From the NCBI GenBank assembly GCA_008080735.1, contig SHMW01000051.1, forward strand, positions 1 to 30,764: a DNA stretch of 30,764 nucleotides. The letters run 5' to 3'. Positions 200 through 13,839 of the stretch are shown piece by piece. Within the stretch, counting starts at the first letter, position 1, and every line of letters starts with the position of its first letter. This DNA comes from Promethearchaeota archaeon (lineage in GTDB: Archaea > Asgardarchaeota > Lokiarchaeia > Sigyniarchaeales > SOKP01). The position numbers and the translations under genes were made by a program. Below the pieces are notes generated by a model, which was not told the DNA's origin, made no database searches, and was given only the letters and a program-made list of their open reading frames with translations.

Positions 200-1597
200 A
201 TGAATTCAGAACCAGATCGCACGGGATTTTTAAACAAACTTGATATTGCTATAAATAATTTCGTTGATTATTCTTCTAATTTTAATAAGGTTATTACAAT
301 CTCACATAACGACGCCGATGGAATTTCATGTTTGCATCTAATCCAGAATTTGCTCTATAAAATGAATTTAAATTATGATTATTTTATTTATAACCGATCA
401 ACTTCATGGGCAGATTATCTAAAGGGAATATTTTCAAATAGAAGTACCCAAAGGTCCGCCTATATATTTACTGATGTGGGCTCTAACCTTTCAGAACTGA
501 TTCCAATAATAGAAAAACGACAAGAATTATTTTTCATTTTAGATCATCATGAAGTCGATTGTACCATCCCTCCCGAAGAGTATCCTGAAAATTTGTTTTT
601 TGTGAATCCTACTGTATACGGTTTTGATGGACTTGATCATATCGCAGGCGCAACATTAGCATATATGTTTGCCAAAAAAATTAAACCCCAGATCATTAAA
701 CAAGGATGGTTAGCAATAATAGGTATTGCGGGAGATTCCTTAAAGTCTATGGATAAGCTTAAATCATTCAATAGAGAAGTATATGAAGAATTGCTCTCTG
801 AGGAGATATTTATCGACAAATCGGGCTTAATTTTATTCGGTAGTATGCATGATACCATTAAAAATGGGCTGAGATATAGTATATTGCCTTTCGTTGAGGG
901 ATTTGGTGGAGGAAATGATAAAGACATTAAATATTTTTTAAATGATCTTAATATCAATCCGAATAAGAAAGTAAATAAATTATCGGAAACAGAGATAGAA
1001 AAAATTCAATCCAAAGGCAATTTTGAAAGCTATGGACATTACGCATTGCTTCCTGAAAAAAATGGATTATTAAAATTCGCCTTTGAGCATGCACTTCTGC
1101 TTAACATTCTTTGTTTTAAAAATATCAGCGCGGCAGTGTCTAGTATTCAACTAAAACGAATTACTAGATATGCAAAAAATGTATATCACGATTATGTCTC
1201 GAATCTGGCAAAAAACCTAAAGATCCTTTCCAACGATCTACCGCGTTACGAAACAGATAAAGCAATCTTTATTAATGTGAAAGGACAAATTCCCCCGAGT
1301 AATTGGTCTGATACCGCATCCTTTAGTAGCGTAAATGAATTATTAGATCCCCACAAAATACTCTTTTTGGGAGGTTTGGAACGAAAATCGCAGACCATCA
1401 AATTGAGCATCCGATGCACTCGTAAATTCTTAGAAAGTAATAATGGGGTAGGAGTTAATACAGTAATTACGAAGATTAAAGATGATTTAGGAGGAACTGG
1501 TGGTGGACACAAATTAGCCGGGGGAATTCGCTTATCCAGAGCATCTTATAAAAGATTAAAAGAAAATGCGGACGATTATATTGTAGATTCCAATTAA
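200..1597 (+). CDS. DHH-family phosphoesterase, archaeal RecJ/GAN (Cdc45-related) nuclease-like
   Basis: Motif I SHNDADG, motif II FTDVG, DHH motif ILDHHE and C-terminal DHHA1 motif GGGHKLAGG. The 465-aa length fits archaeal RecJ-like proteins. Confidence 0.85.
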   Translation: MNSEPDRTGFLNKLDIAINNFVDYSSNFNKVITISHNDADGISCLHLIQNLLYKMNLNYDYFIYNRSTSWADYLKGIFSNRSTQRSAYIFTDVGSNLSELIPIIEKRQELFFILDHHEVDCTIPPEEYPENLFFVNPTVYGFDGLDHIAGATLAYMFAKKIKPQIIKQGWLAIIGIAGDSLKSMDKLKSFNREVYEELLSEEIFIDKSGLILFGSMHDTIKNGLRYSILPFVEGFGGGNDKDIKYFLNDLNINPNKKVNKLSETEIEKIQSKGNFESYGHYALLPEKNGLLKFAFEHALLLNILCFKNISAAVSSIQLKRITRYAKNVYHDYVSNLAKNLKILSNDLPRYETDKAIFINVKGQIPPSNWSDTASFSSVNELLDPHKILFLGGLERKSQTIKLSIRCTRKFLESNNGVGVNTVITKIKDDLGGTGGGHKLAGGIRLSRASYKRLKENADDYIVDSN

Positions 1598-1618
1598 AGT
1601 TTATTTTATGAATTTCCA

Positions 1619-1915
1619 ATGAGTTATATCGAGAAAAAAACTGAAAAGAGCTATATTTTGACCATTTATGTAAAACCTAACTCTCACCACCAAAAAATTG
1701 AACAGGATGGCAAATTTTTGGCAGTATCCCTCAAATCTAAAGCACGCCGAAACAAAGCCAATAAAGAATTATTACGGCTCTTACAAAAAAAGTTAGGAAT
1801 TAATGCTAATCAGATTAAATTTTTATCAGGACTCTATAACGAGGATAAAATTATTCAAATAGATTTTATGGAGTCTATTGATGAAAATCAGATTGCAAAA
1901 AGATTATTGGAATAA
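1619..1915 (+). CDS. DUF167 / UPF0235 (YggU-like) protein
   Basis: 98 aa with the pattern IYVKPNS...VSLKSKA...KANKELLRLL...I.FLSG....K. Starts 21 bp after the DHH gene. Confidence 0.8.
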   Translation: MSYIEKKTEKSYILTIYVKPNSHHQKIEQDGKFLAVSLKSKARRNKANKELLRLLQKKLGINANQIKFLSGLYNEDKIIQIDFMESIDENQIAKRLLE

Positions 1916-1922
1916 AAATACA

Positions 1923-2276
1923 CTAAGAACCGATCTTAATCATTCTACCACACCGAAGACAGACAATAAAATGTGTCATTCCCTCGTCTGCACTTCTTGT
2001 TTGTCTTGTTTCTAGAGAAGCCTTATTATATCCACAATTAGGACATTTAAAGTCTTTGATGGTGCTTTTTAGATTCTTTTCCTTCCAATCGATTATCTGC
2101 TTCGCATTGACAACCTCATCCTTAAAATCACGCTCTATACGTGTGGAAATCTTATAATTCTCCGATTCCTCCTCAGAAAAGGAGACAACTGTTCCACATC
2201 TACATTTAAATACCTTGTTCCCCTTATCATCTTTCGAGGGAAGCATTAATGCCCCACACTCTGGACAGAACTTCAC
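1923..2276 (-). CDS. tfs: Transcript cleavage factor TFS (RpoM/TFIIS-like, two Zn ribbons)
   Basis: N-terminal FCPECG..CRCG ribbon and C-terminal CPNCG..QTRSADEG..CLRCG ribbon with the catalytic DE pair. GTG start. Confidence 0.92.
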   Translation of the reverse strand: MKFCPECGALMLPSKDDKGNKVFKCRCGTVVSFSEEESENYKISTRIERDFKDEVVNAKQIIDWKEKNLKSTIKDFKCPNCGYNKASLETRQTRSADEGMTHFIVCLRCGRMIKIGS

Positions 2277-2470
2277 TTTTTATCATTCTTTTAGCGTTAG
2301 ATAATAATAAAAATGGAACATTTTAGAAAAAATTTAGGGTAAAAGGTGATCTAAGGGGAGGTTTAACTCTATTAGCATTTTGACTTATTTTGTTTCCATT
2401 TTTTGTTGCTTGAATAGTTTTTAAAATGAACTCGAATATTACTAGATGTATAGGAGGAATAAACACGAGA

Positions 2471-3472
2471 ATGAAGACTCAAAAAGGAGAATTTCTATGG
2501 GCCATCGGAGGCAAGATCGAAAACAAGAACACGGTAGAGGATACAACTGTATATAATATAGCTGAAGATGAATGGTATAGTAGTGTGAATGAGCAATTAG
2601 CACCGATGCCCCACCCCGTGCAAGGAGCAGGATGGACATTTTTTCAGAATAAAATATTTTGTTTTGGTGGTAAAACTAAACCCCATTCTGGATGCTCTGA
2701 TTTTGTTCAAGTTTATAACATTGAAAAAGATGAGTGGGAACTTTACAATAATTTACCCAAAGCTCGAAGTAAATTAGGGAAATATTATCCCGTTGTTGAT
2801 AATCGCTATATTTATTTATTTGGTGGAGATGATGAGGGGGGACCTTTTAGCAGGGTTAATTGGAATTGGAAATATGATCTAAGAAATGATACATGGGACA
2901 CTGAAGTCGCGGATGCACCCCATACACAATCGTTTCCCCTTCCAACATATCATAATGGGTGGCTTTATTATTCAACTGGAAATACGGGACAGAATCCGGA
3001 ACAAAATTCTTATGAGGGTGCATTAAACCAGCGTTATAATCCAAAAGAAGATAAATGGGAAGTGATTACATCATGTCCAATTCCTACGACCGATGGTTCT
3101 GGGGATAAATGGAAAAATGAGCTGCATTTTATTGGGGGTTGGAATACAAATGAAAGTTTTTATAATCCAGACACGCCAAATTATAATGGACCTGTGAAAA
3201 AGCAACATTTAGTGTATAATTATGAGCATGATAAGTGGCGATTCGAAGCTGAATTGCCAGGGAATTGGCATCATGGAGGGACTCGGGGAACTAAACAGTA
3301 TCTCTGGCGATTCTTAGGTACAATCGATGAGGATATTGATATACGACAACGAAATCCCCATTCAAATAGGATCTTTAAATGGGATGGGAACAAATGGACT
3401 GAAATGGAGCCCGCACCGGTTCGGAAAATGAATTTTGGGACTATATATACCACAATCGGACCAAAACTTTAA
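2471..3472 (+). CDS. Kelch-repeat beta-propeller protein
   Basis: Repeated hydrophobic-GG...Y(N/D)...W units (AIGG, CFGG, LFGG, FIGG) with P-x-P/R linkers; about six blades. Start placed at ATG 2471 after AGGAGG at 2452-2457; the track start at 2426 is the alternative. Confidence 0.8.
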   Translation: MKTQKGEFLWAIGGKIENKNTVEDTTVYNIAEDEWYSSVNEQLAPMPHPVQGAGWTFFQNKIFCFGGKTKPHSGCSDFVQVYNIEKDEWELYNNLPKARSKLGKYYPVVDNRYIYLFGGDDEGGPFSRVNWNWKYDLRNDTWDTEVADAPHTQSFPLPTYHNGWLYYSTGNTGQNPEQNSYEGALNQRYNPKEDKWEVITSCPIPTTDGSGDKWKNELHFIGGWNTNESFYNPDTPNYNGPVKKQHLVYNYEHDKWRFEAELPGNWHHGGTRGTKQYLWRFLGTIDEDIDIRQRNPHSNRIFKWDGNKWTEMEPAPVRKMNFGTIYTTIGPKL

Positions 3473-3508
3473 TCAAATCTATAAGAATTAATATTTTTTA
3501 GAGGAAAA

Positions 3509-4486
3509 TTAAAATCGAAGGCCAAATAGCAAAGCCATAAAAATAACTCCAGCTATCAAATCTGCTGTTGTACCAGGATTTAGTTTTCCTTCTTTTTCTT
3601 GTAATTGCCCATCAAGATCATTGAGCAAATGTTTACCCTCTTCGGTCAAGAGCCCTCCAGCGTTTAGAATTTTTGATGATTTTTCCGATATCATTTCGGC
3701 CGATTTCATCCCAGACTTCCTGATAATCAAGGTATCTGGATGATTAGAGAGAATTTTGAGAAACGTGTGAACCGTCGCAATATTAATGTCTCGTACTTTG
3801 GCAAATATTTTTATGAAATAGGGGAAGCCTTCATTCAAAATAATATGAAATCCAGTGGCATATTCCTTACTAATCAAATCGTAATTTTGTGAGAATTCAA
3901 AGATTTGTTTTAAGGTTATCCTATCCCTCTTAAGTTCATTTATAGAATTTTCTTCAGTCAAGTCATATTTTTTCACTTTTCCCAACCCACCTGGGTTTGA
4001 AATTCTAATTGCATCATAAAGCTGTATTGTATCCGATACAGTCGCATCCGTAATGACATCATTTAAAATTTCTTTATATTTTTCCAGTGTGGTAATTCCC
4101 AATCTTAGTGAAATCACGGCGCTGGCAGCTAAGGGCCCCAAAATTAAAATATGTCCTAACATAATATTCCCTCCTTTTTGCCATCTCATCATTTCTTGAG
4201 TGGCAGCTCTAAAGAATTTTCCAAGATTAATATAACTAAAATTTTGGGATCTTTTACCTATTTTTGTAGATTTGTATATTCGATTGCAAAAATCAGAAAA
4301 AACAGGTTGTAAAGCTGCCACACCAGCAAGGAAATGCTCATAACGAGTTTCTTTATAATCTTGGGTTCGATGGATATTACCGGGTTTTGGATATCCAGAC
4401 AATTCTAGTAAACTGGATAATGTAGTACATCTAATAATATCTTCAACAGACTCCAGTTCAATAGGTGAATTTTCCCGAATGAACAC
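3509..4486 (-). CDS. citG: CitG-family triphosphoribosyl-dephospho-CoA synthase-like protein (archaeal type)
   Basis: LLELSGYPKPGNIHR, N.MLG, DTLIIRKSG and C-terminal LNPGTTADL motifs. GTG start. Confidence 0.85.
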   Translation of the reverse strand: MFIRENSPIELESVEDIIRCTTLSSLLELSGYPKPGNIHRTQDYKETRYEHFLAGVAALQPVFSDFCNRIYKSTKIGKRSQNFSYINLGKFFRAATQEMMRWQKGGNIMLGHILILGPLAASAVISLRLGITTLEKYKEILNDVITDATVSDTIQLYDAIRISNPGGLGKVKKYDLTEENSINELKRDRITLKQIFEFSQNYDLISKEYATGFHIILNEGFPYFIKIFAKVRDINIATVHTFLKILSNHPDTLIIRKSGMKSAEMISEKSSKILNAGGLLTEEGKHLLNDLDGQLQEKEGKLNPGTTADLIAGVIFMALLFGLRF

Positions 4487-4533
4487 ATCTAAAAAAAGCT
4501 AGCACTTAATATATTCTTTATTTTATGAATAGT

Positions 4534-4845
4534 CTAATAGTAATAAGTAAATTCGAATTGTTTTCGCTCTTTCACGGTGAATCCATCTCTATCATCTGTT
4601 CGGTACGCGATTGGCCGATAATCCTCCTTCAAATTGTTCTTGTAGAGAAACTTCTTAATTCTAAGTTTAATAGCTCTTTTCGATAGATCCGCTGGCATGG
4701 TTACTTCTATTTCATTTCCATCCCGATTTATGGTCAATTGAGGGATTTGCTCTGCTAAGAATTGGATTAAATCCTCTACATGTTGTTCGCTCTTAAAACT
4801 TAATTCCTTGACATTTATATAGATCGTTTTAGTGTCGTCGCTCAT
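4534..4845 (-). CDS. rpl22e: Ribosomal protein eL22 (L22e) homologue
   Basis: The segment SKRAIKLRIKKFLYKNNLKEDYRPIA aligns by eye with the eukaryotic eL22 signature [26 protein letters not shown]. 103 aa. Confidence 0.8.
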   Translation of the reverse strand: MSDDTKTIYINVKELSFKSEQHVEDLIQFLAEQIPQLTINRDGNEIEVTMPADLSKRAIKLRIKKFLYKNNLKEDYRPIAYRTDDRDGFTVKERKQFEFTYYY

Positions 4846-4956
4846 ATCTATATCACTTATTAAATGAATTAAAAATACTATAAATTTTTTATCATTTCCT
4901 TCTTTCCTAAATCAATAAAGTAATCCAATAACATTAGATTAAATGAAGTGAATTAT
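4846..4956. promoter_or_regulatory. Divergent promoter region between eL22-citG and rbcL-nucleoside hydrolase
   Basis: 111-bp AT-rich gap between divergent genes, with TATA-like TTATTAAA (~4857) and TATAAA (~4880). Confidence 0.4.
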
Positions 4957-6243
4957 ATGGTAGATTATGTAGATTTGGACTATGAGCCAAGCAAGAAGGA
5001 TTTAATTGCAATGTATTATGTTGAAAAATCGCCAGAATGTAAGGATATGGAACATGCGTGTATGGAAATCGCTAAAGAGAGCTCGATCGGAACATGGACT
5101 AAGATTCTTACCATGTCAGAAGAAATTGCCCAATCTCTTAAACCAGCAGCGTTTCATATTGACGAAGAGAATAATATTATTAAGATAGCCTACACGGAGG
5201 AGTTGTTTGAGGCGAATAATATGTCCCAAATCTTAAGCGCTATAGCTGGTAATATTTACGGAATGAAAAAACTAAAATACCTTAGGTTATTAGATGTGTC
5301 TTTTCCCGAAAATATAGTGAAATCTTATAAGGGACCGAAATTTGGAATAGAGGGAATCCGAAAATTAACTGGAATTGAAAATCGACCCCTCTTAGGGACG
5401 ATCGTAAAACCGAAAGTGGGATTAAACGAATCAGAACACGCAGAGGTGTGCGCCCAAGCCTGGCGAGGTGGGCTCGATATTGTAAAAGATGATGAAAATT
5501 TGACAAGTATGAAATTTAACCAATTTGACAAAAGAATTAAAACAACCCTTGAAAAAAGAGATCAAATCGAGGAGGAAACGGGAGATAAAAAGATCTATAT
5601 GCCTAATATAACCGCACAAGTAAGCACGATGAAAGAAAGAGCAGACCATGTGATAAACCATGGGGGTGAATATGTGATGATAGATATTGTCACGGTGGGA
5701 TTCTCTGCGCTAATGGAGATGCGAGATTATCTTGATTCAAAAAATGTAGTCATTCACGCACATCGCGCTATGCATGCTGCTTTTACTCGGATTAAACAAC
5801 ACGGATTAACGATGTTGGCTTTAGCAAAGATTTCCCGATTAATTGGGGTAGACCAACTCCACACGGGCACCGTAATCGGAAAAATGGAAGGAGAAAAACA
5901 GGAAGTACTTGATATTAATAAGACTATTACTCAGTCGAATATCTCTGGAAATGACACTTCTCTCTTAGATCAGAATTGGTATGATATTAAACCCGTACTT
6001 CCCGTAGCTTCTGGAGGATTAAGTCCTTTAGATATTCCAGAATTAATTCAAATTCTTGGAAAAGATATGGTATTCCAGTTTGGAGGAGGATGCCACGGGC
6101 ATCCCAGCGGAACGGAGGCAGGTGCAAAGGCTATAATCCAAGCGTTGGATGCTTCTTTAAATGGAATCTCCCTTAGAAAATATTCAAAGACACATAAAGA
6201 ATTAAAGCAAGCTCTCGAAAAATGGGAAGAACAATGTTATTGA
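4957..6243 (+). CDS. rbcL: Form III ribulose-1,5-bisphosphate carboxylase (RuBisCO) large subunit
   Basis: ESSIGTWT, AGNIYGMK, GTIVKPKVGL, GGLDIVKDDENL (carbamylated Lys), HAHRAMH, DQLHTGT, GKMEG (loop-6 Lys), ASGG and QFGGG are all present. No small-subunit gene nearby. ATG 4957 preferred over GTG 4948. Confidence 0.93.
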   Translation: MVDYVDLDYEPSKKDLIAMYYVEKSPECKDMEHACMEIAKESSIGTWTKILTMSEEIAQSLKPAAFHIDEENNIIKIAYTEELFEANNMSQILSAIAGNIYGMKKLKYLRLLDVSFPENIVKSYKGPKFGIEGIRKLTGIENRPLLGTIVKPKVGLNESEHAEVCAQAWRGGLDIVKDDENLTSMKFNQFDKRIKTTLEKRDQIEEETGDKKIYMPNITAQVSTMKERADHVINHGGEYVMIDIVTVGFSALMEMRDYLDSKNVVIHAHRAMHAAFTRIKQHGLTMLALAKISRLIGVDQLHTGTVIGKMEGEKQEVLDINKTITQSNISGNDTSLLDQNWYDIKPVLPVASGGLSPLDIPELIQILGKDMVFQFGGGCHGHPSGTEAGAKAIIQALDASLNGISLRKYSKTHKELKQALEKWEEQCY

Positions 6244-7199
6244 TGAATCAAAATAATATTTCACATCCAATTATTATAGACACGGATATGGCGCCAGATG
6301 ATTGGGCTGCAATTCTTTACCTAGCAAAACGTGAGGATGTTAGAATAAAAGGAATTACCATCACGGGCACTGGGGAAGTTCACGGTAAACAGGGTGCAAT
6401 CAATTGCTTGCGCTTGCTTGAGTTGCTTAATAAATCTCACATCCCCGTAGCATATGGCTCCTCCAAACCACTTAAATTCTCTCATAAATTCCCTTGGATA
6501 ATGAGATTTGCTGTCGATAGAAGATTATTTATAAAATTTCCAAAAACCAAGAAAAAACCTCTGGATATAAAAGCCTTAGATCTAATGAATAAAATAGTCA
6601 ATTCTTCTTCTAAAAAGATTTACTTAATTGCCTTAGGACCCTTAACTAATCTGGCCAAAGTTCTGCAAAAGTATTCAGAAACCAAAGAAAATATAGAAAA
6701 AATCTATATTATGGGCGGTGCGGTGGATGTAAAAGGAAACATTTCTGAGGTTAGCCGTTCAATTGATAATCCCTATGCGGAATGGAATATATATTGCGAT
6801 CCGCACGCTGCCAATATAGTCTTTCAATCTGGCATCCCCATTGTTTTGGTCCCGTTAGATGTAACTAATCAAGTGCCTATTGATAAAAAATTTATCAACC
6901 GATTGAAAGATAATCAAAATAATGTAATTTGTCAGTTTCTTCTTAAAATCATTAAAAGATTTGGTTCTCGGATAGAAAAGTCGTCTATTCCATTCTGGGA
7001 TTTAGTAGCGGCGTCAATTTTAGGCAACGAAGTAATAGTAAAGAAAGAAACCAGAAAAATTCGGGTGATTGCGCAAGAGGGACGCCAATCGGGCCGAATC
7101 ATTGAAGATCCCGAGGATGGTACTCTAATTGAGATATGTAAGAAAATTGATCGAGAAGAATACCTTAGAAATGTGTTCAATACAATATTATCTCGTTAA
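6243..7199 (+). CDS. Ca2+-dependent nucleoside hydrolase (IU-NH family), probably purine-preferring
   Basis: DTDMAPDD (DxDxxxDD), LGPLTNLA, IMGGA, AEWNIYCDPHAA, PLDVT and PFWD motifs. The ATG at 6243 overlaps the rbcL stop (TGATG). Confidence 0.9.
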   Translation: MNQNNISHPIIIDTDMAPDDWAAILYLAKREDVRIKGITITGTGEVHGKQGAINCLRLLELLNKSHIPVAYGSSKPLKFSHKFPWIMRFAVDRRLFIKFPKTKKKPLDIKALDLMNKIVNSSSKKIYLIALGPLTNLAKVLQKYSETKENIEKIYIMGGAVDVKGNISEVSRSIDNPYAEWNIYCDPHAANIVFQSGIPIVLVPLDVTNQVPIDKKFINRLKDNQNNVICQFLLKIIKRFGSRIEKSSIPFWDLVAASILGNEVIVKKETRKIRVIAQEGRQSGRIIEDPEDGTLIEICKKIDREEYLRNVFNTILSR

Positions 7200-7226
7200 A
7201 ATTCAAGGCAAGATTGGGCAGTCTTC

Positions 7227-8180
7227 CTAAAAAGTTTCTGCTAAATCGGGATATAGTTTGTTAAAATATCCGTGGACATGGCTTGAAGCAAATATCCCTC
7301 CTTCGCTGATTAGTGCGTCTATGTACCTCCTGCTTACCGTTTCGAAAGCGGGATTTATAATTTGTACTCCTTTTGGGGAATTTTTCCATATCTCTTCTGG
7401 ACTCCTCATTTCAATCTTTTCAAGAATCCCGAAACTCGTTTTTGGATTATATTTGAGCAAAGTGGTTGCCACATAAAAAGGGACATGTTCCTCATGAGCA
7501 ACAAGTGCAAGTAACCGAGATCCTATCTTATTAAGTACTGTGCCCTCAGAAGTAACAGAATCCGCTCCAATAAGTATCAAATCAACTTCATAATTATTAA
7601 CTGCCCAACGCATTGCGCTATCAACCACATGAATAACCTCTACGCCCACCTCGACTAATTTTTTTACTGTTTTTCTACCTTGCAGCTTTGGTTGGGTCTC
7701 GGTTGCGATAACTTTAAATCTTTTTCCTTGCGATTTTGCCTTCATTAAAATAGCATTAACAAATGAAGAGTGACAATGGGTCATAACGGTGAATTCATCC
7801 TCAGAGGAGTCATTAGGAAATCTCCTTGCCCCGATTTCGGCTATCTTTTCTCTTGCTGTTTCAATCATATTTTTATAATCTCCTTGAAAAGTCTCAATAA
7901 GATCAAGAATTTCTCCATTTTCTATTCTTTCCTTGTTTTTCTCTAACATTCGTGTTATATAATTAAGGCCGTTTCGCATAGCAGGCTCTGTTTCTCGTGT
8001 TTTAAACAATACTACTTTAGCTTCCTCTAATTTTTCCTTCCAATCTTCAAAAGTATTACATTTATTTTCGATCCGACAAGCATACTCCATTAACAATCTA
8101 ATTGCGTTTAATGCAACATTAGTCGCTCCTTGGATTTCTAAAGATGTAATCCGTTTCGCTTCTTCTTTTAATTTTTCCAT
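7227..8180 (-). CDS. Ribose-1,5-bisphosphate isomerase (eIF-2B alpha/beta/delta family)
   Basis: EIQGA, TRETEP, MTHCHS (catalytic Cys), TETQPKLQG, VVDSA, GADS (catalytic Asp), NKIGS and NPAFE; matches archaeal R15Pi. Close to RuBisCO. Confidence 0.85.
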   Translation of the reverse strand: MEKLKEEAKRITSLEIQGATNVALNAIRLLMEYACRIENKCNTFEDWKEKLEEAKVVLFKTRETEPAMRNGLNYITRMLEKNKERIENGEILDLIETFQGDYKNMIETAREKIAEIGARRFPNDSSEDEFTVMTHCHSSFVNAILMKAKSQGKRFKVIATETQPKLQGRKTVKKLVEVGVEVIHVVDSAMRWAVNNYEVDLILIGADSVTSEGTVLNKIGSRLLALVAHEEHVPFYVATTLLKYNPKTSFGILEKIEMRSPEEIWKNSPKGVQIINPAFETVSRRYIDALISEGGIFASSHVHGYFNKLYPDLAETF

Positions 8181-8231
8181 AACATATTTCCCTCCTGGTT
8201 GATTAGTAGGATTTCTATCTTTTTGCCATTA

Positions 8232-8432
8232 TTAATCTCCTTCACCAGCCTCATCTTTTATACTCTCATCTTCTTCCAACTCATAATCCTCAGAATCAAT
8301 TTCTACATAAAAAGAACCAGTATATCCACAATTTGTACATTCAAAACGTTCTGGACCTAACCATCCACTTACATTAAATGCTGGATGCAGAGTAGGGTTT
8401 TTACATTTGGGGCATATACGAATTTTAACCAT
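8232..8432 (-). CDS. Small Zn-ribbon protein with acidic tail
   Basis: CPKC...SGWL.P...CTNCGY.G, then an E/D-rich C-terminus. 66 aa, co-oriented upstream of R15Pi. Confidence 0.75.
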   Translation of the reverse strand: MVKIRICPKCKNPTLHPAFNVSGWLGPERFECTNCGYTGSFYVEIDSEDYELEEDESIKDEAGEGD

Positions 8433-8574
8433 AATATGACAATAAAGAAATTTCTGTTTAATATATTTATAATAGTTAGATTAAATCAAAAAACTTGAGC
8501 CATCATGTTCTTTATTTTTGATAATAGTAAAAAAAATTATATCTCAATTCTTATACAATCTGAGAAAGCAGATT

Positions 8575-10410
8575 ATGAGTGATTTGGATATTCAACGCAG
8601 GAGTCTTCCGAATGAACCAGGTATTTATCAGTTTAAAAATAAAAAGGGAAAAATCATCTACATTGGAAAAGCGAAAGATCTGAGAAAACGAGTTTCCTCT
8701 TATTTTACTAATAAACATTTTAATGATCCATATTATGAAGAAAAAATTATTGATCTGGTAAATCGAATCAATTCAATTGAATATATAGTAACGGAAAATG
8801 AAAAAGAAGCGCTTATCCTCGAAAATATTATGATAAAGAAGTATCGCCCTCGTTTTAATGTCTTTATGAGGGATTCTAAAAGTTATCCGTGGGTGATGAT
8901 TACTTATTCAGAGGAATATCCGAGAATTAGACTTATGCGAAATCCACGCCACTATGATTCAGACAACCTTTTTCTCGGGCCTTATACTGATAAACAAGAG
9001 ATTCAACGGATATTGAGAGATTTACGGAAGATTTTTCCTTATTGTTCGTGTAAAAAGAAGATTAGAAAAAAGGATCGCCCATGTTTATATCATCAACTAA
9101 AACTATGTCCAGGTCCTTGCATTGGAAAAATAGATGAAAAAGCTTATTTGGAAAATATAAAAAAAATTGATATGTTTCTTAAAGGTGAGACAGGCGAATT
9201 AAAAACAGAAATTGAGGAAAAAATGAAAAAAGCAGCTGAAAACAAAAACTATGAGGCAGCTGCCTATTGGCGTGATAAATTACAAGCAATTGAGAATACC
9301 ACTACGAAGCAACATGTTCTTCTCAATGATGAATTGGATAAGGATATCATTGGATATTTTAACAGAGATAACTATGCCGCGGTGGTTATTCTTCATGTAA
9401 GGGATGGTAAGTTTACTAATAAAAGCCCATTTACTTTAAATTTGGAAGAAAAACTGGTGAAAAAACAAGATATCTTAACCTCTCTCCTTGAACAATATTA
9501 TCAAGATACTCTACAAAATCTCCCCGATCTTATAATTCTCTCGGAATTGTATTCCAGTTTGGAATTGTTAAGAGATTATTTAAGAGATTCTAAAAAACAT
9601 CTACGCATTAGAACCCCGCAAGAGAGCGAAGAGTATGCCTTATTACGTATTGCTCAAAAAAACGCTAAAGTAATGGTGAATCAACAAATAGAAATGGAGG
9701 ATTTAAAAGTAAAAGAGGGTGAGGAGAGACAACAAATATTAGAAGAAATAAAAGAATTACTGGACTTATCTGAAATCCCCCGGATAATCGAGGGTTTTGA
9801 TATTTCAAATATAGAAGGGAAGGACGCGACAGGCTCAATGGTCTATTTTCTGGAAGGAAAACCATATAATAAGAAGTACCGCCATTATAATATTCGTTCA
9901 AAATCGACTCCAGATGACGTTGGAATGATGAAAGAAGTTGTTTATCGGAGATATTCAAAAATCTTAGAAAGAGATGGAACCTTACCCGATCTAATTCTAA
10001 TAGATGGTGGTAAAGGTCAATTGAATGCTGCAAAAAGCATTCTTGGGGATTTAGGTCTTGAAATCCCTGTCATTAGTTTAGCAAAGCGTCTGGAAGAAAT
10101 CTTTACCACGGAGAATCAAGAATCAATAATCCTCCCTGAAGATTCTCCCATATTGAAATTATTCCAACATATACGCGATGAGGCACATAGATTTGCTGTA
10201 CGGCTTCATAAGACGCGGAGAAAGAAGAGATATTCTGGATCGGTCTTAGAAGAAGTAAAAGGAATAGGTCCCGCAACCCGCAATAAGTTATTAAAACGAT
10301 TCGGGAGTATTGAGGGAATAGAAAAAGCATCCGATGAAGAATTGCTTGAGATCGTAAAAACAGACCTTATTACAAAGATAAGAAAAAAATTAGACTTGAG
10401 ACGAAATTAA
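8575..10410 (+). CDS. uvrC: Excinuclease ABC subunit C
   Basis: GIY-YIG domain (GIYQF..IYIGKA), Cys-rich CSC..CLYHQLKLCPGPC, UVR coiled coil (YEAAAYWRD), RNase H-like GFDISN/DGGKGQ/RDEAHRFA, and HhH GIGP. ATG 8575 preferred over the track TTG at 8518. Confidence 0.95.
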   Translation: MSDLDIQRRSLPNEPGIYQFKNKKGKIIYIGKAKDLRKRVSSYFTNKHFNDPYYEEKIIDLVNRINSIEYIVTENEKEALILENIMIKKYRPRFNVFMRDSKSYPWVMITYSEEYPRIRLMRNPRHYDSDNLFLGPYTDKQEIQRILRDLRKIFPYCSCKKKIRKKDRPCLYHQLKLCPGPCIGKIDEKAYLENIKKIDMFLKGETGELKTEIEEKMKKAAENKNYEAAAYWRDKLQAIENTTTKQHVLLNDELDKDIIGYFNRDNYAAVVILHVRDGKFTNKSPFTLNLEEKLVKKQDILTSLLEQYYQDTLQNLPDLIILSELYSSLELLRDYLRDSKKHLRIRTPQESEEYALLRIAQKNAKVMVNQQIEMEDLKVKEGEERQQILEEIKELLDLSEIPRIIEGFDISNIEGKDATGSMVYFLEGKPYNKKYRHYNIRSKSTPDDVGMMKEVVYRRYSKILERDGTLPDLILIDGGKGQLNAAKSILGDLGLEIPVISLAKRLEEIFTTENQESIILPEDSPILKLFQHIRDEAHRFAVRLHKTRRKKRYSGSVLEEVKGIGPATRNKLLKRFGSIEGIEKASDEELLEIVKTDLITKIRKKLDLRRN

Positions 10411-10517
10411 TTCAATTTTAAATATCTCTTTCAAAGAAAACAACCGAAATTTGCTAAACATTAGGGAAACTAAAATGAACAAAAATGAAATGTAGTCTAA
10501 TAAAACCTACTTAAATA

Positions 10518-10694
10518 TTATTCTCCCCAATCTTCTTCCGCCATTTCGGCAACTTCAGCTGAAGCTTGTTCATTTTCGATTACCGTTATTTCTAAGTCTA
10601 CGCCACAATCGGGACAAGGTATAACTTCACCTACGATCGTTCCCTCGTCGAGTTCGAATTCAAAAAAACAAGCTGGGCATTCACATTTTACCAT
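10518..10694 (-). CDS. lysW: Amino-group carrier protein LysW (58 aa; absent from the ORF track)
   Basis: Translated by hand: MVKCECPACFFEFELDEGTIVGEVIPCPDCGVDLEITVIENEQASAEVAEMAEEDWGE*. It has two CxxC pairs, is acidic, and ends in the diagnostic EDWGE. SD-like GGATGAGTGA upstream. Confidence 0.93.
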   Translation of the reverse strand: MVKCECPACFFEFELDEGTIVGEVIPCPDCGVDLEITVIENEQASAEVAEMAEEDWGE

Positions 10695-10807
10695 TAGTAT
10701 TGATCACTCATCCTTTTAATTTCAATTCAGATAAATAAGCATATTAACTATAGAAAATAAAATTTATGTTCAATCTCCCCGTGCTCTCAAGAAAAAAATG
10801 AAATGTT

Positions 10808-11254
10808 TCATAATCGTTTACTCATCTCATACGTGATTCCATAATTTTCCTCCTCAACCTTATTACCCAGTTCATATCCAATTTTTTTATAAAAATCTAA
10901 CGCATTTATGCTTGAATTGAGATTAACCTTCTTATGTCCGCATGTTTGAGCTTTTTTTTCCACATGTTTCATTAGATCTTTTCCTACACCCTTTTTTTGG
11001 AATTTCGGTAAAACAAATACAGAACTTATATAGTTTTTTTCCAAACCTACAACACCAACTATTTTTTTCCCATCTAAGGCAATAAAAAAATCTATTTTTT
11101 TTGAAAGGTTTTTAATGTGTTCTGAAGAATATTCGTCTGATAAAAATTTGATAACTGATTTTGGGTAATATTTACGATTAGATTCAGATAATGTTTTACG
11201 AATAAGATTGGAGACATCTCTCGCATTTTCCGAACGAAAAGGACAGATTTTCAT
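10808..11254 (-). CDS. GNAT-family N-acetyltransferase
   Basis: Motif A VFVLPKFQKKGVGKDLM and motif B NALDFYKKIGY. Confidence 0.9.
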   Translation of the reverse strand: MKICPFRSENARDVSNLIRKTLSESNRKYYPKSVIKFLSDEYSSEHIKNLSKKIDFFIALDGKKIVGVVGLEKNYISSVFVLPKFQKKGVGKDLMKHVEKKAQTCGHKKVNLNSSINALDFYKKIGYELGNKVEEENYGITYEMSKRL

Positions 11255-11283
11255 ATTTTATAATTCTAACTCAATTATACATA

Positions 11284-12729
11284 TTACATTTTATCTAAAA
11301 GTATTTGGACTAATTGAGCGGCGGCTTGCCCATGTATTCTTGCAAGAGAATCTCTTTTAGCTTCAGCTATGATTCTTATCACTGGTTCTGTATTTGATGG
11401 ATGAATTAATACAAACCAATCGAGATCTTTTCCAAATCTTAAATCGTTCTCTATTTGATACACATCTTCTCCTTCAGATATCAATTCTTGCTTTATTTGT
11501 TTAATTAATGGCTCTATTTTTATGCCTTCGATATTAATTTTTTCTCGGTAATTATAATATACGGGTAATTCTGATACTAACTCTGATATCTTTTTGCCTG
11601 AATGTACGATTATTTCTACGATCTTTGCCGCCGCAAAAATCCCATCTCTGGCATTGTTGAAAGAGGGAAGCATAACCCCCCCACAAGAACCTTCTCCGCC
11701 AAAAACAAGGCTATCTTTTTTTTGCTTTTTCTCATCAAGTAAATTGCGCATTTTTTCTGCTAAATAGCATTCTCCAATTGGAGTTCTTATAACTTTAGCA
11801 TTATATTTTTTTGCAAGCGTATCAAACCGAAGTGAAGAAGCGACATTAGTAATAAATACTGGCTTCTCAATCTTTTTATAGTAATGTTTCAAATACCAAT
11901 CCGTGATTAGTGCTAATCCTACATCTTCGGCATAGCATTTAAAATCATCGCCAACGATCCCAAGTCTATCAGCATCACAGTCATGGGCAAACCCTACATC
12001 GGCTTTCTCCTCCCACACTTTCATTATTAAATCTTCCAAATTTTTTTCAACTGGCTCAATACCCCTTGGAAAGTCTCCATTCTCATCAAAATCATTATTT
12101 ATTACTTTCACATCACATCCTAGTCCTTTAAGAAGTTTTGGAGTGACTAGTTTGCCTGACCCCGCACCCATATCAACAATAATCTTAAGATGATTTTTCT
12201 TTTTCACCTGCTTATAGTCGAGATTGTTATAGATTGCGTTAATATAATCTTTAATAGGAGAAATTTTTATAACATTTTTTTTTTTCTGCTTTATATTTGT
12301 GGGAATTTCGATTTTTTTATTTTCAATCCGGGATAAAATTAAAGATATTTCATCTAATTCGGATTGGTTAAGAAAAGTTGTTTCCGAAACTAGTTTTAGG
12401 GCGTTCCATTCTGGAGGATTATGAGATCCGGAGATGATAATAGCCCCCCTAATATTCGCTCTATTTTTCTCGTATAAAATTGTAGGGGTGGGACAAATAT
12501 CGGCGTCTATTACCATACAATCAGTATTAATAAGACTTTCAATCACTATTTCTTTAATCCATTTTCCACTAGGTCGTGTATCACGGCCAACTATTACATC
12601 TCTTTTACGACTTTTATCTCGATTTAACCATAGACCATAGGCGGTTGCGATATTTTGCACTGTATCTGTATTTAGGGTATCTCCGGCAATCCCTCTAATT
12701 CCACTAAATGAAAAAATTAGATTTTTAAT
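11284..12729 (-). CDS. Alpha-D-phosphohexomutase family protein (PGM/PMM/GlmM/phosphopentomutase-like)
   Basis: GRDTR, SGSHNP (phospho-Ser), HDCDADR (metal), GGEGS (sugar loop) and SNTEP. The N-terminal FSFSGIRG motif lies upstream of the track GTG (12660), so the start is placed at ATT 12729. Confidence 0.88.
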   Translation of the reverse strand: MKNLIFSFSGIRGIAGDTLNTDTVQNIATAYGLWLNRDKSRKRDVIVGRDTRPSGKWIKEIVIESLINTDCMVIDADICPTPTILYEKNRANIRGAIIISGSHNPPEWNALKLVSETTFLNQSELDEISLILSRIENKKIEIPTNIKQKKKNVIKISPIKDYINAIYNNLDYKQVKKKNHLKIIVDMGAGSGKLVTPKLLKGLGCDVKVINNDFDENGDFPRGIEPVEKNLEDLIMKVWEEKADVGFAHDCDADRLGIVGDDFKCYAEDVGLALITDWYLKHYYKKIEKPVFITNVASSLRFDTLAKKYNAKVIRTPIGECYLAEKMRNLLDEKKQKKDSLVFGGEGSCGGVMLPSFNNARDGIFAAAKIVEIIVHSGKKISELVSELPVYYNYREKINIEGIKIEPLIKQIKQELISEGEDVYQIENDLRFGKDLDWFVLIHPSNTEPVIRIIAEAKRDSLARIHGQAAAQLVQILLDKM

Positions 12730-12813
12730 ATTATCCCACCTAAAGGATGATTATTATATGCCAAAATTGTGTCTAAATAATTATTATTCTAATAAAATAT
12801 TGATTAATTTGAT

Positions 12814-13839
12814 CTAATATGAATATGATCGAACCACGGGATTATTCTCTAATTTGTATTTCACTAATGCTAAGGCACCTCGTATTCCAATTTCATCTTT
12901 ATAATTACTCACCCGAAGTTTTGGAGGATGATTTATCGTAAATTTAATTGCATCGTTTTCAAACTGATCTTGTAAGTATGGAATGATCTGGTCTTTATCG
13001 TTCATCATCGCCCCACCAAAATATATGGCCCTACAGTCATAAAAATTATTTATTAAACCAATCCCGATTTTTGAATAAAAGATACTCTCTTCTACTATTT
13101 TTTGAGACAAATCGTCTCCCTTTCTTGCTGCTTCAAACACTTCTTTTGCGCTAATTTTTGATATATCATTCTCTACCAATTCCACAAGGACATCTCCATT
13201 CAACTTTTCTTGTTCCAAGAAATCCAAAGTTCGTTTCCTTATTGCTGTTCCGGAACTATACGCTTCCCAACACCCATAGGCACCACAATTGCATTGATAT
13301 TTACTTTCCGGAACAACCTTCGCGTGACCGATTTCTGCTGCATTTCCATCTTTACCAAGTAATAACATCCCATTACAAATAACTCCCCCTCCTATTCCCG
13401 TTGACATCGTGATGTATACAACATCATTTTTTTCCTCTGCCGTTGCTTCGAAATAGTGGATCCCTAATACTGCCGCATTGCAATCGTTAATAAGGTAAAA
13501 AGGAATATCTGGAAACTTTTCTTCGATTGGCGTTTTTAGAGGAATTTCTCGAAATCCTAAATTGGCATTATTAAAAACGGTGCCTTCTCTCATATCTATC
13601 GGACCTGCTGAAGCGAGACCAATTCCCAACATCTGGGTTTTTTTTAATCCATGTTCTTCTAATAATTCATCTAATAGGGAACATACTTGATTACTTATTG
13701 AGGTTTTTGCTTTCTTAATTGTTCTTTCCTTTTTGATAAAAATCTTATCCTCATTTAAATCAAGATTGCTGAGCGCTACTCTAACCCAGGTCCCTCCAAT
13801 ATCAGACCCTCCAATATATTTTTCCGCCACCAAAATCAT
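12814..13839 (-). CDS. ROK-family sugar kinase (glucokinase-like)
   Basis: DIGGT, AGPID, NDCNAA, STGIGGG, EIGH and the Zn motif CNCGAYGCWE. No N-terminal HTH, so a kinase rather than a repressor. Confidence 0.9.
   Translation of the reverse strand: MILVAEKYIGGSDIGGTWVRVALSNLDLNEDKIFIKKERTIKKAKTSISNQVCSLLDELLEEHGLKKTQMLGIGLASAGPIDMREGTVFNNANLGFREIPLKTPIEEKFPDIPFYLINDCNAAVLGIHYFEATAEEKNDVVYITMSTGIGGGVICNGMLLLGKDGNAAEIGHAKVVPESKYQCNCGAYGCWEAYSSGTAIRKRTLDFLEQEKLNGDVLVELVENDISKISAKEVFEAARKGDDLSQKIVEESIFYSKIGIGLINNFYDCRAIYFGGAMMNDKDQIIPYLQDQFENDAIKFTINHPPKLRVSNYKDEIGIRGALALVKYKLENNPVVRSYSY

Follow-up and report, generated by a model that had tools for sequence, protein, structure and literature searches.

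The contig SHMW01000051.1 from the Promethearchaeota genome assembly GCA_008080735.1 (30,764 bp; the whole stretch analysed is called the window below) carries a gene for a nucleoside hydrolase (NH) directly behind rbcL, the gene for a form III ribulose-1,5-bisphosphate carboxylase/oxygenase (RuBisCO) large subunit. The NH gene faces e2b2, a gene for a ribose-1,5-bisphosphate (R15P) isomerase-type protein. The window corresponds to contig C51 of a 4.15-Mb metagenome-assembled genome (G000) that is 93% complete and 7% contaminated. We consider, with a probability of about one in two, that the NH is functional, acts in the cytoplasm on purine nucleosides by preference, and serves as an optional feeder of the known adenosine monophosphate (AMP)/pentose-bisphosphate salvage route, and not as part of a new pathway. 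What is new in relation to the literature searched is the presence of an NH inside a RuBisCO/R15P-isomerase cluster; the protein families involved and the core pathway of this lineage were already known. The features on which the analysis rests are as follows.

4957-6243, plus strand: rbcL, form III RuBisCO large subunit, 428 aa (TIGR03326, motifs and orthologues)
6243-7199, plus strand: NH, IU-family nucleoside hydrolase, group-II-like (Trp-Asp), predicted to be purine-specific, 318 aa (PF01156 and motifs)
7227-8180, minus strand: e2b2, R15P isomerase-type protein of the IF-2B family, 317 aa (best model TIGR00511; solved relatives)
6241-6245, plus strand: TGATG junction, where the rbcL stop codon TGA and the NH start codon ATG share one base (read directly)
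7200-7226, no strand: 27-bp spacer separating the convergent NH and e2b2 stops (open reading frame ends at 7199 and 7227)
4846-4956, no strand: divergent intergenic region between eL22 and rbcL, probable promoter region of an rbcL-NH unit (from the layout of the open reading frames only)

An earlier note on this DNA had described an intact form III rbcL whose stop overlaps the NH start, together with a convergent R15P-isomerase-type gene ending 27 bp past the NH stop, and the open reading frames (ORFs) and the sequence confirmed both. The two junctions were moreover bridged, without differences, by contigs from two public marine-sediment DNA runs that possibly represent the source sample. Alternative in-frame ATGs for the NH are present at 6222 and 6234; orthologues align from residues 1-3 of the protein that starts at 6243. 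On the far side, e2b2 itself begins at 8180, and position 8432 falls inside the e2b2/uvrC intergenic region. The coupling of rbcL and NH that the note had proposed is plausible in the form of co-transcription. The divergence of eL22 and rbcL is syntenic in relatives. No terminator-like site was called in the 7200-7226 spacer, and promoter and terminator scan counts were at the level of shuffled sequences; the consensus used in these scans is bacterial and not applicable to archaea.

The rbcL product scored 579 bits on the form III model TIGR03326 (equivalog cut-off 497), and all catalytic and phosphate-binding motifs are present, namely TIVKPKVG, DIVKDDEN (KDDE, with the carbamylated Lys), HAHRAMH, GKMEG, ASGGL and FGGGCHGHP. 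Orthologues within the family share 65-83% identity. For e2b2, the best-scoring model was TIGR00511 at 234 bits, under its equivalog cut-off of 314, and the eIF-2B_rel subfamily model was passed (192 bits, cut-off 186). Among solved structures, it comes closest to R15P isomerases from Thermococcus kodakarensis and P. horikoshii (3A11, 5YFJ; 176 bits), compared with 107 bits for the MtnA structure 1T9K. The catalytic residues of the T. kodakarensis enzyme, Cys133 (THCHS) and Asp202 (GADS), are kept. The conserved position of e2b2 next to rbcL, seen throughout the family and the order, lends some support to its putative conversion of R15P to RuBP.

The NH belongs to PF01156 (210 bits, cut-off 34) and displays the Ca-binding fingerprint DTDMAPDD at residues 13-20 as well as AEWN. 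It also contains an insert, GGAVDVKGN, resembling that of the T. vivax IAG-NH, and its FWD motif aligns to the AWD (Trp260-Asp261) of that enzyme. In group II NHs, a Trp replacing the His before the last Ca-coordinating Asp accompanies purine specificity (PMC8910321). This Trp-Asp pair (FWD) is retained in all 44 aligned clade members, and the Ca-binding and catalytic motifs are retained in all orthologues. We therefore predict from these residues that the NH is group-II-like, with a preference for purines. It seems very improbable that the protein works instead as a salvage clean-up enzyme on a non-standard substrate, for instance on nucleotides, on ribosides of nicotinamide or other groups, or on nucleosides that have been modified or damaged. 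Such a role would agree with the placement of the NH below every NCBIfam equivalog cut-off (best RihC, 162 bits against 382) and with the existence of NH-fold proteins with non-standard or unknown substrates (PMC8910321). However, the full Ca- and ribose-binding set (DxDxxxDD, AEWN and W-D), conserved together with the IAG-NH-type insert, is the signature of a true purine nucleosidase.

The closest sequence relatives of the NH are uncharacterised Chloroflexota proteins of about 40% identity. In a quick maximum-likelihood tree (IQ-TREE with SH-aLRT support; the root rests on a long branch), the NHs of genera g1 and g9 formed one clade (SH-aLRT 100) that was nested in the Chloroflexota NHs (91-92) and separate from other Asgard NHs. 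This placement suggests that the NH clade probably derives from one bacterial acquisition, with a Chloroflexota-like donor.

Phosphorolytic entry to the pathway lies outside the window, as the earlier note had observed: contig C51 contains no AMP phosphorylase, PNP-family or PfkB gene. The further idea that phosphorolytic entry is missing was not borne out, given that the genome search found an AMP phosphorylase gene on contig C49 (C49:13354-14916, minus strand; equivalent to L001:1498-3069, minus strand). Read through a 30-nt insert, this gene scored 570.7 bits on TIGR03327 (cut-off 535). The insert holds three stop codons and splits the gene into two ORFs inside DKHS-T/GGVPGNK (at about L001:2497-2526). 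An insert of 29-31 nt occurs at the same site in ten relatives of nine genera; across the 11 genomes, the inserts share an ACA bulge, a 4-bp helix (YAGY/GCUR) that covaries, and a hairpin of 9-10 bp in which changes compensate one another. Insert-less alleles, reading AGCACA|GGT, are present in three species of the same genus. Judged by sequence and predicted fold, the insert is a tRNA-type mini-intron, and the AMP phosphorylase is taken as functional after presumed splicing. A match to the enzyme turned up in 41 of 41 searched genomes, and in 32 of them it exceeded the curated cut-off. Because AMP phosphorylase is encoded on C49, the canonical route from AMP through R15P, then ribulose-1,5-bisphosphate (RuBP), to 3-phosphoglycerate (3-PGA) is, given the presumed splicing, complete in G000. 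By hiding one phosphorolytic enzyme, the mini-intron means that automated annotation of these genomes can falsely imply a gap in the pathway.

The earlier note had also left the R15P-forming step after hydrolysis unassigned. This did not hold either, since AMP phosphorylase is joined in G000 by four enzymes scoring above their cut-offs: ribokinase (TIGR02152, 311 bits against 300), phosphoribosyl pyrophosphate (PRPP) synthase (251 against 113), APRT (198.5 against 186, encoded adjoining MTAP) and HGPRT (209 against 150). Because all five enzymes are encoded, no unassigned R15P-forming enzyme is needed; as predicted from this gene set, known steps can take the NH-released ribose to R15P, through ribose 5-phosphate (R5P), PRPP and a nucleoside monophosphate (NMP; AMP, IMP or GMP). 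No PfkB protein passed a model for ribose-1-phosphate (R1P) kinase. Among the 11 PfkB genes, the best R1P kinase scores were 143 bits on NF053626 (cut-off 330) and 129 bits on NF041134 (cut-off 500).

These scores bear on a new hydrolytic branch that would bypass AMP phosphorylase, in which ribose is converted to R15P by unassigned enzymes, for example a kinase forming R5P, an archaeal phosphopentomutase forming R1P and a PfkB R1P kinase. Candidates can be named, in that the window encodes, at a distance of 3-6 kb, a mutase of the PGM/PMM family (11284-12753) and a ROK kinase, and several PfkB paralogues (C35, among them C35:36864-37805; C81, among them C81:2005-2982; C112; C10) are without known specificity; moreover, genetic work in E. 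coli points to a conversion of R5P through R1P to R15P (PMC9700705). Nevertheless, we regard this branch as quite unlikely, given the distance of every PfkB protein from the R1P-kinase models and the presence of AMP phosphorylase throughout the genomes searched.

Other outlets for R5P were also examined. The transketolase N-domain was not found in G000, an absence that is provisional in a genome 93% complete, and phosphoribulokinase (PF00485), the Calvin-cycle partner and alternative source of RuBP, was not found in G000 or in five relatives. As neither turned up, R5P has, provisionally, no other apparent way into glycolysis, and this fits an R5P flow directed to RuBisCO in G000. Transketolase is patchy in the family (13 of 24 genomes) and was not found in several near-complete relatives (G003, G005, G006, G013, G014 and G019). 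Apparent stops in the transaldolase/FSA gene were rejected as a disruption, as they come only after an intact 223-aa ORF has ended. The ribokinase gene (C6:79153-80145, plus strand) is situated one 118-aa ORF from, and on the opposite strand to, a gene of the type I phosphodiesterase/nucleotide pyrophosphatase family (C6:76520-78400, minus strand, 626 aa); this neighbour hints at a context of nucleic-acid or nucleotide scavenging.

The linkage itself was then compared among relatives. In 11 related genomes of nine genera, rbcL and e2b2 stand directly tail-to-tail, 10-60 nt apart. An NH between the rbcL and e2b2 locus genes was found only in G000, G001, G002, G003 and G006, which are five species of one genus. 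In every case the NH gene follows rbcL on the same strand, with a 1-nt overlap in G000 and a gap of 9-57 nt in the relatives. Among these five species the rbcL products share 73-83% identity and the NHs only 58-65%, and because of this low NH identity the rbcL-NH pairing must have been retained for long. As NH catalytic residues and the position behind rbcL have been kept through such substantial divergence, co-expression of the NH with RuBisCO is likely in this clade. The earlier note had named, as grounds for refuting its reading, a sporadic NH unlinked to rbcL in relatives together with a complete AMP-phosphorylase route elsewhere, and half of this was borne out. Such a route exists, given the presumed splicing; the rbcL-NH arrangement is kept in five species and is not a one-off, but it is confined to one clade, its slot takes up unrelated genes elsewhere, and the NH is unlinked in g9.

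The slot accepts other genes as well. In genus g3 it holds a DEAD-box helicase gene; in genus g8 it holds genes for a glycosyltransferase, a methyltransferase, a B12-binding (corrinoid) protein and URO-D, along with a duplicated e2b2 fragment. The short gap between the convergent rbcL and e2b2 is thus an insertion hot spot, with insertions at the following positions.

L080:5035-6216 (G008): slot insertion between rbcL and e2b2
L081:4758-5939 (G020): slot insertion between rbcL and e2b2
L082:6099-11795 (G013): slot insertion between rbcL and e2b2

Several observations weigh against the reading of the NH as a feeder of RuBisCO salvage. Because the slot accepts unrelated genes in other genera and the NH orthologues of the sister-like genus g9 (54-57% identity) lie at an unrelated locus, unlinked to rbcL, the mere neighbourhood of the two genes says little for a role of the NH dedicated to the pathway. 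Neither rbcL nor e2b2 was found near related NHs at 18 loci in four other Asgard families, or near NHs at 20 bacterial loci, nearly all from Chloroflexota. Ribokinase was present in 22 of 24 family genomes irrespective of the NH and gave no co-occurrence signal. The hydrolytic route would also be costly, at about 3 ATP equivalents per ribose compared with about 1 for a phosphorolytic or kinase route. As to substrate, the NH orthologues do not conserve the second Trp of group II, which in T. vivax is Trp83 of the beta3-alpha3 loop: at this site the present NH has W85 (FPWIM), the orthologues have R, K or L, and the relatives from Chloroflexota and other Asgard archaea carry a Trp two positions later. 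In addition, neither PNP-family gene number nor transketolase presence tracks the presence of the NH across relatives.

Some of this evidence would suit the main rival account, in which the NH is an ordinary purine-salvage base recycler that came to lie in a permissive slot without a specific tie to RuBisCO, its ribose going the usual way of ribokinase products. The unrelated slot genes of g3 and g8 favour such an account, as do the neighbours of the g9 orthologue (an ArsR regulator, a peptidase and an alpha/beta hydrolase), the family-wide occurrence of ribokinase independent of the NH, and the locus of G005, a member of the same genus in which the NH is absent and rbcL and e2b2 are 60 nt apart. 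It does not readily explain, however, why the NH has stayed so close behind rbcL and on the same strand in five diverged species. Because the gap is so short, there is little room for a promoter of its own, which argues for retained co-expression; the nucleoside class of substrate also fits the theme of the pathway. We hold an incidental neighbour to be possible, if doubtful.

In the favoured scheme of an optional feeder, a Chloroflexota-type NH gene would have landed behind rbcL, in the rbcL/e2b2 slot, in a forebear of some members of a single Promethearchaeia (Loki-type) genus, and would now most likely be co-transcribed with rbcL. The enzyme would split purine nucleosides, its presumed substrates, into base and free ribose. 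Ribokinase would convert the ribose to R5P and PRPP synthase would convert R5P to PRPP, after which APRT or HGPRT would rejoin the released base to PRPP to yield AMP, IMP or GMP. AMP phosphorylase, from the spliced transcript, would then generate R15P, e2b2 would generate RuBP, and RuBisCO would produce two 3-PGA. We thus infer a flux of ribose through PRPP and NMP to RuBisCO. Of the variant hydrolytic pentose-bisphosphate pathway put forward in the earlier note, what survives is a hydrolytic nucleoside entry linked to RuBisCO salvage genes, which is absent from the literature searched; the unassigned R15P-forming step does not. More broadly, nowhere did that literature bring an NH together with the pentose bisphosphate pathway, or with both AMP phosphorylase and RuBisCO.

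Three relatives depart from the common arrangement. In G003, G014 and G024, the NH and form III rbcL are kept, e2b2 is lost from the locus, and rbcL or rbcL-NH abuts uvrC (L038 in G003, L088 in G024 and L089 in G014). A search for e2b2 elsewhere in these three genomes gave no match at E<=1e-30, and phosphoribulokinase was not found in them either. All three retain AMP phosphorylase and a true MtnA (366-377 bits against a cut-off of 279; MtnA at L104:4985-6007 and L106:2620-3648). A bolder view would make the NH a real hydrolytic entry to RuBisCO in transketolase-poor Loki-type archaea, with the purine base as a recycled carrier and RuBisCO as the main outlet for free ribose and nucleotides. 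In such a carrier cycle, a nucleoside would yield base and ribose, ribose would pass through R5P to PRPP, base and PRPP would form NMP, and NMP with phosphate would return the base and release R15P. In its stronger form, NH-bearing relatives without e2b2 would use an undescribed isomerase activity, such as that of a promiscuous MtnA. We consider this view unlikely.

The surroundings of the locus are themselves conserved. A syntenic block of about 15 kb (window positions 200-13839, compared with L080-L085 and L088) is found family-wide and comprises genes for RecJ, two small ORFs, a CitG-like protein, eL22, rbcL, e2b2, UvrC, a PGM/PMM-type mutase and a ROK kinase; within it, the CitG-like gene (triphosphoribosyl-dephospho-CoA synthase family) and eL22 are always divergent from rbcL. 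The ROK kinase and the phosphomutase were considered as NH-specific partners and rejected, as they belong to this block, including in genomes without an NH. In the NH-bearing relative G001, some 600 bp separate rbcL from an upstream gene for an NT5C-family 5'-nucleotidase (L037:558-1013, minus strand). Combined with the NH, this nucleotidase would allow NMP to be taken to nucleoside and on to ribose by hydrolysis throughout.

Loki-type Asgard archaea occur abundantly in marine sediments, where debris of nucleic acids is thought to make up part of their diet, and RuBisCO salvage is their proposed means of turning ribose into glycolytic carbon. If the proposed scheme is true, a hydrolase co-expressed with RuBisCO would widen the intake of this salvage from nucleotides to free purine nucleosides, and the NH would be an instance of the recruitment of a bacterial gene into an archaeal operon.

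The system was lastly compared with those already described. The AMP/pentose-bisphosphate pathway of Thermococcus kodakarensis consists of AMP phosphorylase, R15P isomerase and form III RuBisCO (PMC9700705, summarising Sato 2007 and Aono 2015), and Lokiarchaeota are listed among the holders of this trio (PMC9700705). G000 has the same three core enzymes, including an e2b2-type isomerase with Cys133 and Asp202. It differs in two respects. Entry of nucleosides in Thermococcus is phosphorolytic, through nucleoside phosphorylases and an ADP-dependent R1P kinase, whereas in G000 no R1P kinase passes a model and a hydrolase stands in the cluster; and the AMP phosphorylase gene of G000 requires removal of a mini-intron. 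A link from PRPP through AMP and R15P to RuBP has been proposed for candidate phyla radiation (CPR) bacteria (Wrighton et al. 2016, PMC5113843). There, APRT brings PRPP-derived ribose into the AMP-phosphorylase/RuBisCO route, and the same connection is suggested here downstream of the NH and ribokinase; unlike the present case, the CPR proposal is without a nucleoside hydrolase and concerns bacteria with form II/III or III-like RuBisCO. With the group II IAG-NHs of Trypanosoma vivax and T. brucei (PDB 1HOZ, 3B9G, 3EPW and 4I71), the NH shares DxDxxxDD, AEWN, the GGAVDV(R/K)GN insert and, preceding the last Ca ligand, a Trp-Asp that replaces His-Asp; the sequences as a whole have little similarity (E ~1e-19 to 1e-20), and the Loki orthologues do not conserve the second stacking Trp. 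Finally, the non-carboxylating pentose-bisphosphate pathway of haloarchaea employs guanosine phosphorylase, an ATP-dependent R1P kinase, RuBP phosphatase and an aldolase, and has no RuBisCO (PMC9700705). None of its accessory genes was seen here, but like the NH-bearing locus it is a case in which the genes surrounding R15P isomerase have been remodelled in a particular lineage.

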